Shown here: positions 28,331-36,019 of the stretch, in pieces | Position numbering within the stretch: the stretch's first letter is position 1 | How the letters are laid out: the number at the start of each line of letters is the position of its first letter | From: Alphaproteobacteria bacterium | GTDB taxonomy: Bacteria; Pseudomonadota; Alphaproteobacteria; Rs-D84 | NCBI GenBank assembly: GCA_017618595.1 | Contig: JAFZTZ010000032.1 | Coordinates: 1 to 51,436, forward strand | DNA length: 51,436 bases | Direction: 5' to 3' | Notes under the pieces: model-generated | Database searches by the model: none | Seen by the model: only the letters and a program-made list of their open reading frames with translations | Told to the model about the DNA's origin: nothing | Made by a program: the position numbers and the translations under genes

Positions 28331-28789
28331 ATGAGAACAGAATACGGCAGAAGTTTAATTGAATTGGTTGGTGTGTTGGCCATAACCGGTGTTATGACGG
28401 CAAGTGCAATCGCACTATATAATTCCATTCGGCATAATCAGCAAAATACTATTGCCGCCGCAACATTGCGCGAAGTCGCCCAGAAATCAAATTTGCTGAT
28501 GGGAATGCGTGGCGATTACACCGGGATATCTGTTGAATATTTGATTAAAAGCGGGGTTTTGAAAACAGATGCGGCGCCAATTGGCAGAACCTGGTCGGTG
28601 GATCCGGGGTCAATTGATTTGGCAACATTTGAAATTAAATTGCATGGGCTGACGCATGGGGAATGTGATTTCTTTGCGGCGGCATTGCCGGCATGGGCCG
28701 AGGCAATGATAGTTAATGGCATACCATCCACAGAATATGTGCAATGTATTTCCGCACCAGAAAATGATATAACTTTCATCGCAAGGTAA
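28331..28789 (+). CDS. Type IV pilin-like protein (prepilin-type N-terminus, C-terminal disulfide pair)
   Basis: Leader MRTEYG followed by RSLIELVGVLAITGVMTASAIALY, with Glu at +5. Two C-terminal Cys (GECDFF...YVQCISAP) match a pilin D-region. 152 aa. RBS GGGGGGA. It starts 18 nt after the dnaX stop. Confidence 0.7.
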   Translation: MRTEYGRSLIELVGVLAITGVMTASAIALYNSIRHNQQNTIAAATLREVAQKSNLLMGMRGDYTGISVEYLIKSGVLKTDAAPIGRTWSVDPGSIDLATFEIKLHGLTHGECDFFAAALPAWAEAMIVNGIPSTEYVQCISAPENDITFIAR

Positions 28790-28791
28790 TA

Positions 28792-29466
28792 ATGAAGAAC
28801 AAAATTTTATCTTTGTTGTGTGTGTTGTTGGTGGCGTGTGCACAATATAAAAGTCCTGAACGTTCCACATGGCCGACATACCTGCACGGCGTCAGTTTTA
28901 CAGACATGAGTGAAAGCGCAAGAATTGCCAAGAAACCAATATATCTTGGTGCGGGTGGCCGTACGGTTGTTGATGCGGTTGGAAACAGACCCGAATTAGA
29001 TTATGGTAATAAATCACAAAACGAAGCGGCGGCTAGTGTTGGGTATATGTCAGAATTAGAATATAAATTATACGATGCATTGCGCCGCCCAGGCGTATCA
29101 GTTCAGCGTGCCGGCACAGATGTTGTTATTATATTGGTGCGCGACGCGATTATGGAACTGAACGCACCAGAAATATCGGCTGGGGGGGATGAAAACCTTG
29201 GCGATATTGTGGATATTTTAAAGAAATATGATGCAACATTTATTGAAATTGCGGGCTATACAGATTCTATGCGCGATTCAACCGCGGCGCACGCGTTATC
29301 ATTGGATATGGCAGAACGTGTTGCGGTGTATATGGCGCAACACAAGATAAATCAGTCGCGTATGTTCGTTGTTGGACGCGGTGCGGCCCGTCCAATTGCC
29401 GCCCAAGATGAATGGGGGCGCCTGACCAATCGGCGCGTAGAAATAAGAATAACACCGGTGCGGTAA
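28792..29466 (+). CDS. OmpA/MotB-domain lipoprotein
   Basis: Lipobox LLVAC. C-terminal OmpA-like domain IEIAGYTDSMRDSTAAHALSLDMAERVAVYM...GRGAARPIA...NRRVEIRI. It starts 2 nt after the pilin-like gene. Confidence 0.8.
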   Translation: MKNKILSLLCVLLVACAQYKSPERSTWPTYLHGVSFTDMSESARIAKKPIYLGAGGRTVVDAVGNRPELDYGNKSQNEAAASVGYMSELEYKLYDALRRPGVSVQRAGTDVVIILVRDAIMELNAPEISAGGDENLGDIVDILKKYDATFIEIAGYTDSMRDSTAAHALSLDMAERVAVYMAQHKINQSRMFVVGRGAARPIAAQDEWGRLTNRRVEIRITPVR

Positions 29467-31355: not shown

Positions 31356-31796
31356 ATGATTGATGCAAAAGGTATCGAAAATGCTATACCGCATCGTGGA
31401 GACATGCGGTTAATAGATGAAATTCGTGAATATACAGATAAAACGGCCGTTGGGATAAAATATGTCCGCGATAATGAATTTTGGTGCGCAGGGCATTTCC
31501 CGGCAAAATCTATTATGCCCGGCGTTTTGATTATAGAGGCATTGGCGCAAACGGCGTGTTTTATGGTAATGAAAGCGACCGGAAATAATAATGGTAAAAT
31601 GCTGGGGTATTTTGTGTCTATTGAAAGCGCGCGTTTCGCCAAGATGGTTGTTCCAGGGGATACATTGGAATTACATATTGAAGAAACAGCATCAAAAATG
31701 AAGCTACATAAATTTGTTGGTAATGCGTTCGTAAATGGTGTGCGTGTCGCATCGGCATCGTTTTCGGCGATAATGGATGATAATCCACAATTATAA
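31356..31796 (+). CDS. fabZ: 3-hydroxyacyl-ACP dehydratase FabZ
   Basis: IPHRGDMRLIDEI...GHFPAKSIMPGVLIIEALAQ. RBS AAGAGGG lies upstream of the ATG at 31356. Confidence 0.93.
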   Translation: MIDAKGIENAIPHRGDMRLIDEIREYTDKTAVGIKYVRDNEFWCAGHFPAKSIMPGVLIIEALAQTACFMVMKATGNNNGKMLGYFVSIESARFAKMVVPGDTLELHIEETASKMKLHKFVGNAFVNGVRVASASFSAIMDDNPQL

Positions 31797-31823
31797 AAAA
31801 ATGCCCGTTTGGGCATTTTTTTA
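31795..31823. terminator. Bidirectional intrinsic terminator
   Basis: Hairpin ATGCCC-gttt-GGGCAT flanked by an A-run and a T-run, between convergent genes. Confidence 0.8.
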
Positions 31824-31841
31824 TTTTATATTATAATCAAC

Positions 31842-32459
31842 CTACCATGTTGGTGCATGGTCGCCTTCTTTGACGATTGGTTGTTCATCTTCCCATACCG
31901 ACAACCCAGTTTTTACATCACTTAATGTCAATTGCAGGTAATATTCAACACGTGTATCCACGGACGAGAACCATCCAGATTGTAATTTCAAATTGCGTTG
32001 AATCATTTTACCAGTTAGCGACATATTTGGTGCAACCAATGTTCCGGTGCCCGCAATTGTGGACGCATCGTATTCGGCATTGCCGCGGGTATTACGCACC
32101 GCGTGCGTTGTTTCATCTTCGGCAGATTTATTGTTTCTGAATCCTGTGGTAACCTGGGCACGACCAGAATTTACTAATGTCTTGCGAATCTTTTTAATCA
32201 GGATATCTGTATCAAAACGTTGCATAGTATCGTTTTGAATTTCGCCAATTGCGATAACCGGATTTTTAATACGCGCAAATGCGCCGCTGGCCAACATAGA
32301 ATTGGTCATTTTTTCGGCGGTTGCGGTCCAGTCACGATATTCCAGTTCCATAACATTTTGCATTTCTGCGACTTCTTTGGAATTGTCCAGGTCAACAACC
32401 GTTGTTTCCCCGCAACCGCAAAGAACGGCGCATAATGCGATTGGTAATAATTTCTTCAT
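31842..32459 (-). CDS. LpoB/YcfM-like lipoprotein (COG3417-type)
   Basis: Lipobox VLCGC. YRDWTATAEKMTNSMLASG...VIAIGEIQNDT...IRKTLVNSG...EYYLQLTLSDVKTGLSVWE parallels the E. coli LpoB layout (YDW...M...ML, N-x-T, L-x-L-x-D-x-x-TGE-x-x-W). Confidence 0.6.
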   Translation of the reverse strand: MKKLLPIALCAVLCGCGETTVVDLDNSKEVAEMQNVMELEYRDWTATAEKMTNSMLASGAFARIKNPVIAIGEIQNDTMQRFDTDILIKKIRKTLVNSGRAQVTTGFRNNKSAEDETTHAVRNTRGNAEYDASTIAGTGTLVAPNMSLTGKMIQRNLKLQSGWFSSVDTRVEYYLQLTLSDVKTGLSVWEDEQPIVKEGDHAPTW

Positions 32460-32470
32460 ATTTTCCCCCT

Positions 32471-33700
32471 TTATTTAAGTTTCATTTGTTTTATATCGTA
32501 TTTATTTGGTGTGGTGCGAACATATACCAAATAATTTCCATCCGTTCCAATAGATATCTGTTTTATAACATTACCATTTGAACGCAATTCTATCAAGCCA
32601 CTTTTGGTAATAGGTGCACGCATCACAGATATTGTTTTGGGTAATGTTGCCCATGTGCGCACTTCGGCACTATTGGTGAATTCAGAATAAATTGTAGACA
32701 TTAGACCAAAGAGTGGCGCCGCGTCAGAATGTGAATTATAAAGTGATGATTGTAATACAACACGTGATGCCGCAGATGTAAATGCGCGCAGCGCATCATT
32801 GGTGCGATACTCACTATATTCTGTTATAAACATGGCATCAACATCGGCCAATAATTCTGCGCCGTCAAATTTGACATATGATTCCAGAAATTGTGGTTCA
32901 GAAATCGCAACTGTAACCATTGTTGTCCCATTACCAGATGCGACTGGTAAAGTTATTCTTTTTTCGGTTAATTTTGGTGCAAAACCATCTTCGATAAAAA
33001 CCCAAACGGTATTTTGTGGCCTTTGTTTTGATTCGGCCAATTTTAAATCACGTGCAATGAAACTGTTGTTTGGCATCATACCATTTGCACGATTCAGATA
33101 TGTTTTCGCATCTGCAAAATCGCCGTTATTCAAAAAGTATATGCCTGATAAATACATCAATGCCGGATTCATAATATCACGATATGCCACCCATTGTTCA
33201 TTTTTTAATGTTTTGGCAATTTCACTATTGGATATCTTGGTTTGATTTGATTCAATCAGTTCTTGGTATGCACGCGACATATCTTGTTGGCGCGCATATG
33301 ATTGGTTTATTATCACGCGCGCATCATTCCAACGTGCATCAGAAATGGCCGCCCACAACTGATAGTACGAAACAAACAAAGAATCCATCATATATGGTCG
33401 ATAATCGTTCGCATTTGCCCCCAGAGTTAGTGTTGTTGCTTCGCGCAGTAAATCGCCGCCAGTAGTGCTTAAATTGCGTTTATTAAATGTTTCATATGCG
33501 TTATCGGCCGCCGATATGTCATCATTATGGAATAGGGCATCCGCCGTCAATAATAAATCCAGGTTATTTTTATCTTGGAATTCGGTATCGGGGCTGGTCG
33601 TCATATAATTATTGCGAACATCGTCAAGGTGCGATTCAACGGTCGCGCTGCATCCGCATAACACAAACGCAATGGTCAAAAAAAACGATACTTTACGCAT
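32471..33700 (-). CDS. Lipoprotein of unknown function (TPR-like N-terminal half)
   Basis: Lipobox FVLCGC. 409 aa. It starts 3 nt after the upstream coupling-protein gene and ends 11 nt before the LpoB-like gene. I recall a resemblance to the lipoproteins that accompany LpoB-like genes (COG3014), but this is unverified. Confidence 0.45.
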   Translation of the reverse strand: MRKVSFFLTIAFVLCGCSATVESHLDDVRNNYMTTSPDTEFQDKNNLDLLLTADALFHNDDISAADNAYETFNKRNLSTTGGDLLREATTLTLGANANDYRPYMMDSLFVSYYQLWAAISDARWNDARVIINQSYARQQDMSRAYQELIESNQTKISNSEIAKTLKNEQWVAYRDIMNPALMYLSGIYFLNNGDFADAKTYLNRANGMMPNNSFIARDLKLAESKQRPQNTVWVFIEDGFAPKLTEKRITLPVASGNGTTMVTVAISEPQFLESYVKFDGAELLADVDAMFITEYSEYRTNDALRAFTSAASRVVLQSSLYNSHSDAAPLFGLMSTIYSEFTNSAEVRTWATLPKTISVMRAPITKSGLIELRSNGNVIKQISIGTDGNYLVYVRTTPNKYDIKQMKLK

Positions 33701-33703
33701 AAT

Positions 33704-35962
33704 TTATAATGTTACCGGTGTCAAATCTTTTAATTCATTTTTCTGTGGGTTATAGTACCGCGGTATGCCGGCATATTCCAATGTTGCGTGGTGCAACGGT
33801 ATAAGGAACTCTGGCAACGGCGAAGACCGTCCCATCTTGATATATTCCGCCATTTTTGGATCGCTAAATGCCATGCGCATTTCTGCCTTGATTGGACGAT
33901 GATAATATCCTTCGTACAGAACGACAGCTTCGGCCGGTTTGCCACCTACGGTTGTTTTTAATTTCATTAAATCAAATTCACTAAATACCGGTTCTTCGGT
34001 TTTTTCTTTTGTTTCTGTTTCTTTGCCATCTGGGCCTTTGGTCTTTTTCTTTTCAAACTTGATTTTTGGTGGAATCATTTTGGCAAAACGCGTTGCGGTA
34101 TCGGTTTCATTTTGACGGAACACAATCTTTGCCGCGGTCGTAGACAGAATTGTTGATGCGGCGTCTGGACCATACTTTTCTTGAATCTGGTGCAAGTCCT
34201 GACCAATGAACAGGTATGATATCTTTTGACTACGACCGACGTCGGGCCCTTGGATAACGGCCTGCATCTTTTGCATTTTCGGCATTTCATCAAGCAAGAA
34301 TAACACCGGATACGGCCCCATTTTTTCGCCGCTGCGTCCAACCGCCCCTGGTGGATTAGCCAGCAAGAAATTAGACATCGTTTCAATAAACATAGATGAA
34401 ATCGGGCTTAACGCCTTGGCGTCAACAACATTAACAGACAGGTATACTGTTACCGGTTTCATTTTGCCATCACGTGGGTCAATCATTCCACGCATATCGC
34501 AGAAATGAAAATCTGAATGACTTGTTCTGTTACGGACGGCGGCGTTACGGAATATACCCAAACCAGTCAAAATTGTTGAAATAATAGATCCGCGTTCGGT
34601 TGATGGTGTGTTGGCAAGTTTTGTTAATTCTGCGATGGCACGGTTTGAATATGCAAATGAACGGCTTTCATTAACCGCACCTTCCAGCCAGTCTTTCATT
34701 GGATCCGCCATCATAACGGTCTGATCGCCTTGTTTTTGACGTTCTGCCAAATCTTGGGCGACGGCAATTTGTGCCTCGGTAATCCAATCAAGCATCATGG
34801 AAAAAGATGCCTCTTTACCAAGCCACGCCTGTGGGATATTTGCCCATGTTCCGATGTGAACATAATTCATGGCGTTTAATTCACCGTTGCGAATAAGGCC
34901 AATTGCCGCAAACGCATTTGGGTCATTTATCATTGAAAAGTAATAGTCCGATAAAACCGCGCCATCGTCCGCATCAAATGTACCAGATTGCAGCCGACCA
35001 TAGAAATAATCATCGGCCTTGGCGCGTTCTATTTTTGACACAATAAATTGCACAAACCCGGCCAGACCAGCACGACCTGCTTGAGTCCAGTGCGGGTCGG
35101 CACTGCTGCCGACGGCATCGGGGACCAAAACATCACAGATATAGTCGACATACAATTCACGTTGTTCGGTACTAAACGGAATGTGCCCTGGTGACAACGG
35201 ATTCCACGATGGATAATAAATGCCCTTTTCTGGTTCGTCTTGTCCCGCCCAGTTCATAATGAACACCGGCCCAACCTTTTCGGAACGATAACCACTAGAT
35301 GCCGAGTCAATTTCAGGTTTCGGGTCGTTTATAATCATTGAAACATCAGGGCATTCAAAAATCGTTGGCAACACGATACCCTGGGTTTTACCAGTCCCGG
35401 GGGGCGCCAAACACAAAACAGATGTCGTTTTTGGTAATTTTAATGGTTTTTTCTTAAAATACCCAAGCAACAATATGTTTCCATCAAATAGTCCCATTTC
35501 TTTGACATCTTTTTCGGTTGCTTCGCGCCCGGAACGTTTATCAAATTCATCCTTGCCGTTGGGATTAAATTCCTTGGTTAATGTGCTGTCTGTTAATATG
35601 AAAAATGCAATAGCCGGTAAAAATGGTACGATGCACGGAATGTCCGGATGCATAACGCAACGCCAAATCCAATACGGAATTTCCGCAACCACCGACAGCC
35701 CCGCCGATGATAACACATTGTTTAAATAAATCTTCATCCAAACCGCCGTTGCGGGTGACCAACCATACCGCCAAATATGTTCAATAATAAACGATATGCC
35801 AAATACGACCGCACACACCAACCACACCGCAATGGTCCACCGCAATATCCAAAAGGTTTGCGCCATTGGGGCCTGTTCGTGTTCCTTGTAAGAAGTGGAT
35901 TTGAAAATATTCAAACCCTTACTATCTTTACCCACAGATAAAATCTTGAACTTTTCTGCCAT
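33704..35962 (-). CDS. Type IV secretion coupling protein, VirD4/TraG family ATPase
   Basis: 752 aa. N-terminal TM segments (FWILRWTIAVWLVCAVVFGISFII; IVPFLPAIAFFILT). Walker A LAPPGTGKTQGIVLPT, Walker B VLFLLDEMPKMQKM, and LFIGQDLHQIQEKYG. I chose the ATG at 35962 (MAEKFKIL). Confidence 0.8.
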   Translation of the reverse strand: MAEKFKILSVGKDSKGLNIFKSTSYKEHEQAPMAQTFWILRWTIAVWLVCAVVFGISFIIEHIWRYGWSPATAVWMKIYLNNVLSSAGLSVVAEIPYWIWRCVMHPDIPCIVPFLPAIAFFILTDSTLTKEFNPNGKDEFDKRSGREATEKDVKEMGLFDGNILLLGYFKKKPLKLPKTTSVLCLAPPGTGKTQGIVLPTIFECPDVSMIINDPKPEIDSASSGYRSEKVGPVFIMNWAGQDEPEKGIYYPSWNPLSPGHIPFSTEQRELYVDYICDVLVPDAVGSSADPHWTQAGRAGLAGFVQFIVSKIERAKADDYFYGRLQSGTFDADDGAVLSDYYFSMINDPNAFAAIGLIRNGELNAMNYVHIGTWANIPQAWLGKEASFSMMLDWITEAQIAVAQDLAERQKQGDQTVMMADPMKDWLEGAVNESRSFAYSNRAIAELTKLANTPSTERGSIISTILTGLGIFRNAAVRNRTSHSDFHFCDMRGMIDPRDGKMKPVTVYLSVNVVDAKALSPISSMFIETMSNFLLANPPGAVGRSGEKMGPYPVLFLLDEMPKMQKMQAVIQGPDVGRSQKISYLFIGQDLHQIQEKYGPDAASTILSTTAAKIVFRQNETDTATRFAKMIPPKIKFEKKKTKGPDGKETETKEKTEEPVFSEFDLMKLKTTVGGKPAEAVVLYEGYYHRPIKAEMRMAFSDPKMAEYIKMGRSSPLPEFLIPLHHATLEYAGIPRYYNPQKNELKDLTPVTL

Positions 35963-36019
35963 CGTGTTATGATTATACCAGAAAAAACAAAATTTATAAA
36001 GCAAGGAAATAAGATTTTA

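Follow-up and report, generated by a model that had tools for sequence, protein, structure and literature searches.

The window analysed here, a stretch of 51,436 nucleotides (contig JAFZTZ010000032.1 of assembly GCA_017618595.1, from an alphaproteobacterium of the order Rs-D84), carries on its minus strand virD4, the gene for a 752-residue ATPase (33704-35962), followed by genes for two lipoproteins of 409 and 205 residues (32471-33700 and 31842-32459). In the explanation that we regard as highly probable, the ATPase is the VirD4 of a scattered, vertically inherited chromosomal VirB/VirD4 type IV secretion system (T4SS), and the lipoprotein pair is a separate module whose adjacency to virD4 reflects operon packing. 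A preliminary description of this DNA had left two possibilities side by side, a dispersed T4SS component of the kind seen in reduced intracellular bacteria and a repurposed coupling ATPase acting together with lipoproteins of the envelope. The first is borne out by VirB3/VirB4, VirB8/VirB9/VirB10 and VirB11, which this genome encodes on other contigs, and by the order-wide occurrence of the coupling protein, VirB4 and VirB10; the second fares badly once the distribution of the lipoproteins is taken into account.

The 752-residue protein is a VirD4-type type IV coupling protein (T4CP) by its Pfam and NCBIfam matches, its fold matches and its invariant ATPase motifs. It matches T4SS-DNA_transf (PF02534) at 4e-43 with a score of 148 bits, where 20.1 would suffice, and further matches TraG-D_C (1e-17) and TrwB_AAD_bind (1e-15). 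Because it stays below every NCBIfam equivalog cut-off, the best match reaching 109 bits against 250 and the VirD4 model NF010472 giving 83 bits against 728, it is a divergent member of its family. The features claimed for it in the preliminary description are present, namely hydrophobic N-terminal segments (residues 36-64 and 105-126), a Walker A motif (LAPPGTGKTQG, residues 185-195, with K192) and a Walker B motif (LFLLDEMPKM, residues 554-563, with D558/E559), together with the motif IGQDLHQIQEKYG at residues 586-598 (the IGQD...YG motif). K192, D558/E559 and DPKPE are invariant in 96 T4CP homologues (81 from Enterousia, 10 from other Rs-D84 members and 5 from megaplasmids), and loss of the Walker motifs in orthologues, which that description had named as evidence against its proposal, was looked for and not seen.

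An AlphaFold2 (AF2) model of the T4CP (pLDDT 81, pTM 0.71) has the TrwB/VirD4 fold, consisting of a RecA-like domain and an all-alpha domain. Its best Foldseek matches are Cag-beta (Cag5) of Helicobacter pylori (8DOL; E 3e-16, TM score 0.63-0.65) and TrwB of plasmid R388 (1E9R/1E9S; E 3e-10 for 1E9S, TM score 0.62-0.68). These proteins differ from the T4CP in sequence, with identities of only 13-16%, and a single-sequence search of the PDB with the T4CP gave nothing at 1e-3; a profile of the T4CP family also reaches Cag5 at the sequence level (1e-6). Relative to megaplasmid homologues, the all-alpha domain of the Rs-D84 T4CPs is enlarged by approximately 60-100 residues, which lie around positions 300-400.

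The window is one contig (C96) of a 937-kb metagenome-assembled genome (MAG) of 110 contigs, which is 85% complete with 6% contamination. Genome-wide profile searches with models for VirB4, TrbI, T2SSE, TrbL and TrbC and with three relaxase models gave matches on other contigs or none. In line with the preliminary description, the window itself therefore holds no further T4SS or relaxase gene, Dot/Icm-specific models not having been part of the search, and the whole-genome search for virB genes that had been proposed as a check recovered VirB3, VirB4, VirB8, VirB9, VirB10 and VirB11. The VirB3 and VirB4 genes lie on contig C46; those for VirB8, VirB9 and an 813-residue VirB10 lie together on C69, without virB11 or virD4; and a gene for a VirB11-like ATPase is solitary on C20. 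In addition, a tandem array encodes four to five polytopic membrane proteins of 422-481 residues with 4-7 hydrophobic segments each (G000:C9:15816-22467). One member of this array is weakly TrbL/VirB6-like (E 1e-5, with TrbL-family proteins of a sister family as queries), and the array is a candidate for a multiplied VirB6 set such as that of the Rickettsiales vir homolog (rvh) T4SS. The Pfam models TrbL (VirB6) and TrbC (VirB2) gave nothing in this genome, and neither did BLAST searches with the VirB2 and VirB6-like proteins of Erythrobacter. At least four contigs or loci of this genome, and probably five, carry vir genes. The VirB4 search matched once per genome, here and in the relatives, and VirB4 thus has no duplicate, and in family f3 there are one to three TrbL-family matches per genome, clustered where there are several. 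The relaxase models PF03432, PF08751 and PF03389 found no match in this genome, other relaxase families lying outside the search.

Comparison of this genome with 40 relatives, that is, 41 Rs-D84 genomes from six families, 29 of them high-quality, extends these observations to the order as a whole. All 41 genomes encode the T4CP, 40 encode VirB10 and 38 encode VirB4, and each of the three is found in all 29 high-quality genomes. Scatter of the system is order-wide, because vir genes that share a contig in the relatives sit 35-290 kb apart; virD4, for example, lies approximately 35 kb from virB4 in G013, 112 kb from virB10 in G003 and 234 kb from virB4 in G040. The T4CP gene stands alone in every Rs-D84 genome examined. 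It is found beside rsmE-rluB in all 80 fetched Enterousia loci with an upstream flank, and among different housekeeping genes, such as rplT-pheST or a recF-like gene, in the other five families. Public T4CPs that are 59-97% identical to it come from rumen and gut MAGs, many of them assigned to Candidatus Enterousia, and the sequence composition at the locus is host-like. Among the 41 genomes, the relaxase model PF03432 was above its cut-off in one, and PF08751 and PF03389 in none. The lone virD4 is a trait of the lineage and not an orphaned remnant, and the T4SS is scattered, vertically inherited and probably non-conjugative, to judge from gene content and arrangement.

Within plasmid records, the closest T4CPs are those of megaplasmids from Erythrobacter aureus (NZ_CP031358), Sphingosinicella (NZ_CP035502) and Microvirga (NZ_CP069357), which are 30-31% identical over nearly the full length (E 8e-97 to 5e-79). 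The VirB4, VirB9, VirB10 and VirB11 proteins of the Erythrobacter cluster are 30%, 39%, 30% and 37% identical, respectively, to those of Enterousia. Because VirB4, VirB9, VirB10, VirB11 and VirD4 are all 30-39% identical to the proteins of one megaplasmid cluster, they share an origin as one system. The T4CP gene is the last of the virB/virD4 cluster in the megaplasmids; in Erythrobacter this cluster runs contiguously from virB2 to virD4, and in the Sphingosinicella and Microvirga records a gene for a VirB11-type ATPase lies directly upstream of the T4CP gene. Whereas the megaplasmid clusters adjoin DNA-processing genes (topB, a primase-like gene and a gene for a single-stranded DNA-binding protein), the Enterousia genes are chromosomal and scattered, and no relaxase was found with them.

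The phylogenetic placement that the preliminary description had called for is in agreement with this relationship. In a T4CP tree that carries long-branch warnings, the Rs-D84 proteins are monophyletic (99/97) and sister to the megaplasmid proteins (99/96), and their internal branching largely tracks the families of the order. A long branch (100/99) sets the Rs-D84 and megaplasmid T4CPs together apart from Ti VirD4, IncP TraG, IncX TaxB and two NF010472-type VirD4s. The two NF010472-type proteins, found among 400 Alphaproteobacteria, had been considered as Rickettsia RvhD4, were dropped in that capacity because they come from 2-Mb genomes with a GC content of 45-49%, and were used as generic VirD4 references.

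The rvh T4SS of Rickettsiales serves host interaction rather than conjugation. It keeps virB8-B9-B10-B11-D4 in one islet, and it has duplicated virB4, virB8 and virB9 and a multiplied virB6. The system described here resembles it in having a virB3-virB4 islet and a virB8-virB9-virB10 islet, possibly in its tandem, weakly VirB6-like array, and in that no relaxase was found with the three models. There are also differences, in that virD4 and virB11 each stand alone, the searches gave no second VirB4, the hosts are gut and rumen members of Rs-D84, and the T4CP groups with megaplasmid VirD4s. Since neither virD4 nor virB11 has a vir gene beside it, VirB4 has only one copy and the lineage does not belong to Rickettsiales, the system was not filed as rvh. 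Gillespie et al. (2009; PMC2653234) describe rvh as a chromosomal, vertically inherited P-type T4SS of a reduced alphaproteobacterial genome, with its genes rearranged into approximately five islets. The Rs-D84 system shares with it the vertical inheritance and the dispersal of vir genes over several chromosomal islets. By gene arrangement alone, the T4SS of Rs-D84 would be a second "archipelago" case of vir genes.

Several components and neighbors of this T4SS have features of their own. The VirB9 protein (L110:2334-3875, equivalent to G000:C69:15833-17374) has 513 residues and ends in a SPOR (peptidoglycan-binding) domain, matched in Pfam at 7.6e-5; this domain is not known from other VirB9 proteins. 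The last 45 or so residues of VirB10 (G000:C69:19673-19837) form a Cys-rich module with the pattern C..G..P...GCC.GE...CC....C..P. This module is also found at the C-terminus of otherwise unrelated open reading frames (ORFs) of the same genome (G000, C50:7138-7281, C51:2589-2714 and C42:1499-1651) and recurs at ORF C-termini in every Enterousia genome searched, and it could represent a surface, anchoring or sorting domain common to these proteins. Genes for a 208-residue signal-peptide protein and then a 639-residue soluble protein lie directly 3' of virB4 (L104:5478-8210, G000:C46). Neither protein has a Pfam match or any similarity to the Erythrobacter cluster, and both may be lineage-specific T4SS parts or substrates. 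Divergent from virB11 (L111:2892-3810, G000:C20) are two lipoprotein genes, one encoding 186 residues of no known family and the other 124 residues with an FKBP-type peptidyl-prolyl isomerase domain. Furthermore, a pilus system may accompany the T4SS, since a 559-residue ATPase of the T2SSE family is encoded on C75. In family f5, the solitary T4CP gene is followed by a different conserved trio (L127:6192-9895, L132:268-3870), which encodes a secreted protein of 223-232 residues, a secreted protein of 519-524 residues (one of the two has a lipobox motif) and a protein of 445-453 residues. The only clear relaxase among the 41 genomes (G030:C21:2260-2640; PF03432, 128 bits) may indicate that this one species has a mobile element.

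Of the two lipoproteins encoded behind virD4, the 205-residue protein is assigned to the LpoB family by profile matches above cut-off (PF13036 at 1.4e-32; TIGR02722 with 129.4 bits against 110.55) and by its lipobox (LCGC, with Gly at position +2). In high-GC Pseudomonadota, LpoB-family genes that adjoin homologues of the 409-residue protein share 43-45% identity with it. The 409-residue protein has a lipobox LCGC with Ser at position +2, of the outer-membrane type, and matches no Pfam family at cut-off. Its AF2 model (pLDDT 79.5, pTM 0.81) is tetratricopeptide repeat (TPR)-like and helical in the N-terminal half and beta/alpha in the C-terminal half, and the model gave weak, generic TPR matches in Foldseek, all with E above 6e-3. 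Single-sequence searches of the PDB with either lipoprotein gave nothing (for solved LpoB structures, phmmer E 0.01), and a literature search yielded nothing useful on the paired family.

A profile of the 409-residue family matches 41 of 400 other Pseudomonadota genomes. In all 15 loci fetched from these unrelated Pseudomonadota, whose GC contents range from 41 to 67%, an LpoB-family gene adjoins the 409-residue homologue on the same strand, and no T4CP was found within the 2.5-4.4 kb fetched around each match. Because the adjacency exists without a T4CP in every one of these loci, the pair is an independent envelope module. In G021 and G011, a distant copy of the pair lies elsewhere as a trio (a 447-residue homologue, DUF1425/YcfL and LpoB) beside an outer membrane protein gene and argS; the DUF1425/YcfL gene of the G021 trio stands between the two lipoprotein genes.

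LpoB of Enterobacteria is an outer-membrane lipoprotein that activates the penicillin-binding protein (PBP) PBP1B. Compared with that protein, the 205-residue protein has a linker of only approximately 28 residues between its lipid anchor and globular domain. No UB2H docking domain (PF14814) was found in this genome, which is 85% complete, and three of its ORFs have a Transgly domain. The idea that loss of the pair tracks loss of class-A PBPs was discarded, as the count of PBP-like genes showed no association with the pair among 24 species. The canonical LpoB-PBP1B mechanism is not supported, given that no UB2H domain was found and that the PBP count does not follow the pair.

How firmly the pair is tied to virD4 was assessed in 80 public loci and the window, 77 of which could be scored for the pair. 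The pair stands behind virD4 in 47 of these 77 Enterousia loci and is absent from the other 30, where clean virD4-fabZ junctions can be seen (e.g., L053 and L058). Well-supported branches in a tree of 81 T4CPs force at least seven gains or losses of the pair. When the T4CP tree for the genus is rooted at its midpoint, the pair is found on either side of the root and is therefore old in the genus. Close orthologues of both lipoproteins occur in 11 of the 41 sampled genomes, all of them within the genus, and a search of 16 genomes from the other five families recovered homologues of neither. The co-occurrence that had been proposed as a check is thus present in a majority of the Enterousia loci, and it fails in the remainder and outside the genus. 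These patterns fit an early placement behind virD4, followed by repeated loss of the pair while virD4 stayed. The proposal that the coupling ATPase was repurposed to work with the lipoproteins is not supported, in view of T4CPs without the pair (30/77) and pairs without a T4CP (15/15 unrelated loci). In addition, the combination that the preliminary description had said would indicate chance adjacency, a complete T4SS elsewhere in the genome and relatives in which the genes are not syntenic, is largely what was found, except that VirB2 is undetected and VirB6 is weak.

Some observations weigh against the preferred explanation or limit it. Wherever close lipoprotein orthologues are present, they are always directly behind virD4, and the linkage is kept despite rearrangement of the far flank (L066, L070, L071 and L083), so a functional reason for the linkage is possible. 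Our MAG is incomplete and carries contamination, and the channel may be incomplete, since among the components searched for (VirB2-VirB4, VirB6 and VirB8-VirB11) VirB2 is undetected and VirB6 is weak. Co-transcription of the unit, a leaderless start and an active T4SS are predictions from sequence. One alternative is that the three genes form a functional unit in which the lipoproteins are T4SS or T4CP accessories, coupling channel assembly to peptidoglycan or the outer membrane or replacing a VirB7-like lipoprotein, with selection for co-transcription. The tight spacing in 45 loci (a median gap of 6 nt between virD4 and the first lipoprotein gene), the survival of the linkage after downstream-flank rearrangement, the age of the pair, the SPOR domain of the system's own VirB9 and the presence of lipoprotein genes directly behind T4CP genes elsewhere (e.g., on an IncX4 plasmid, where taxB is followed by a Cag12-family gene) are all consistent with this possibility. 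However, virD4, virB4 and virB10 are retained in species that lack the pair, after at least seven changes; the 16 genomes of the five other families all keep the T4SS with no homologue of either lipoprotein; and homologous pairs do without a T4CP in the 15 unrelated loci and in G021 and G011. We therefore consider such a unit unlikely. A more specific version, in which virD4 and the lipoproteins form an Enterousia unit tying the T4CP or nascent T4SS to the peptidoglycan-outer membrane layer, perhaps in place of VirB7, within a megaplasmid-type system domesticated independently of rvh, appears slightly more doubtful still.

A T4CP that has become independent of any channel, for example as a translocase in its own right or as an ATPase of the envelope, might be suggested by its solitary position in every Rs-D84 genome examined, by its enlarged all-alpha domain and by the undetected VirB2 and weak VirB6. 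Its co-occurrence with VirB4 and VirB10 in all 29 high-quality genomes, none of which keeps the T4CP after losing VirB4 or VirB10, and the resemblance of VirB4, VirB9, VirB10, VirB11 and VirD4 to one contiguous megaplasmid cluster make this very improbable, and a stand-alone T4CP was rejected because VirB genes lie on other contigs and are conserved alongside it. Descent from an integrated conjugative element or plasmid, of which virD4 would be the remnant, draws on the fact that the proteins closest to it in sequence are T4CPs encoded in virB/virD4 clusters on plasmids. This origin is hard to reconcile with the fixed site beside rsmE-rluB in all 80 loci and the lack of a patchy distribution, with host-like composition and invariant ATPase motifs, and with a T4CP tree that largely tracks the Rs-D84 families; in addition, the three relaxase models found nothing in the window or the genome, where integrases and flanking repeats were not searched for. 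On the fixed synteny, the host-like composition and the missing relaxase, the remnant was rejected, and we give it hardly any credence.

Under the preferred explanation, that of a dispersed chromosomal T4SS with a separate lipoprotein module, the 752-residue protein would be the coupling protein of a VirB/VirD4 system of mating-pair-formation type T (MPF-T), inherited throughout Rs-D84. VirD4 would use ATP to recruit substrates at the inner membrane and would feed them into the VirB channel, through which they would reach a partner cell. These substrates are most likely proteins, and less likely DNA, because no relaxase accompanies the system. The virD4 mRNA would be leaderless, with the conserved extended -10 element as its promoter. 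An envelope module that is widespread in Pseudomonadota, consisting of a TPR-like and an LpoB-family lipoprotein, would have landed behind virD4 in the ancestor of Enterousia, would be co-transcribed with it, and would have been lost repeatedly while virD4 was retained. Because the pair was lost repeatedly and virD4 stayed, the adjacency is apparently inherited operon packing in a compact genome and not an obligatory partnership.

Candidatus Enterousia belongs to the uncultured order Rs-D84, with genomes around or below 1 Mb and a presumed dependence on partners (PMC12306168). The same paper proposes "intercellular connections" for the order, and the word "secretion" occurs nowhere in its text. 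These bacteria are abundant in gut and rumen, lack most biosynthesis in genomes of less than 1 Mb and are thought to be partner-dependent, so that a T4SS present in all high-quality Rs-D84 genomes, with no relaxase and a Rickettsia-like scatter, provides a concrete candidate for a partner-interaction machine. The finding matters mainly for the biology of Rs-D84, in which the T4CP is best seen as an ordinary part of a dispersed system and the lipoprotein linkage as operon packing.

At the locus itself, the virD4 unit consists of three minus-strand ORFs at the positions given in the preliminary description, and its account of the junctions and the terminator is likewise accurate. The longest virD4 ORF begins with TTG at 36004; alignments of homologues begin instead at the ATG from which the 752 residues are counted. 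Between virD4 and the gene for the 409-residue lipoprotein, the junction reads TAA-att-ATG, a 3-nt gap with no clear Shine-Dalgarno (SD) sequence. The next junction, to the LpoB-family gene, reads TAA-agggggaaaat-ATG, and its 11 nt include a strong SD (AGGGGGA). Among 45 loci, the gap from virD4 to the first lipoprotein gene ranges from -1 to 80 nt, and a median of approximately 15 nt lies before the LpoB-family gene; co-transcription of virD4 with the two lipoprotein genes is likely because the intergenic gaps are only a few nucleotides. The unit is bounded at 31793-31824 by a bidirectional intrinsic terminator, a perfect 14-pair palindrome with A7/T7 flanks that would serve both fabZ (plus strand) and the virD4-lipoprotein unit (minus strand). 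The divergent spacer between virD4 and rsmE has the 57 bp first reported for it when an internal ATG (36020) is taken as the start of rsmE, which alignments of homologues favor; under the longest rsmE ORF (35969), the spacer shrinks to 6 bp.

A promoter-like site for virD4 lies on the minus strand at 35972-36000, with TTTATA, a 17-nt spacer and the extended -10 element TGgTATAAT (10/12 matches, with TG). This is the best promoter match in the region, and its extended -10 ends 9 nt before the ATG. Across Enterousia, 78 of 80 loci have a TGnTAnnnT motif whose end lies 7-10 nt from the ATG of the T4CP gene, on its 5' side, with no SD, which is why a leaderless virD4 mRNA is proposed. The conserved extended -10 is a new finding of the present analysis, and its position suggests a leaderless or nearly leaderless mRNA. 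Elsewhere in the window, behind dnaX (28331-29466), there are a 152-residue ORF without a Pfam match and a 224-residue ORF with an OmpA domain.

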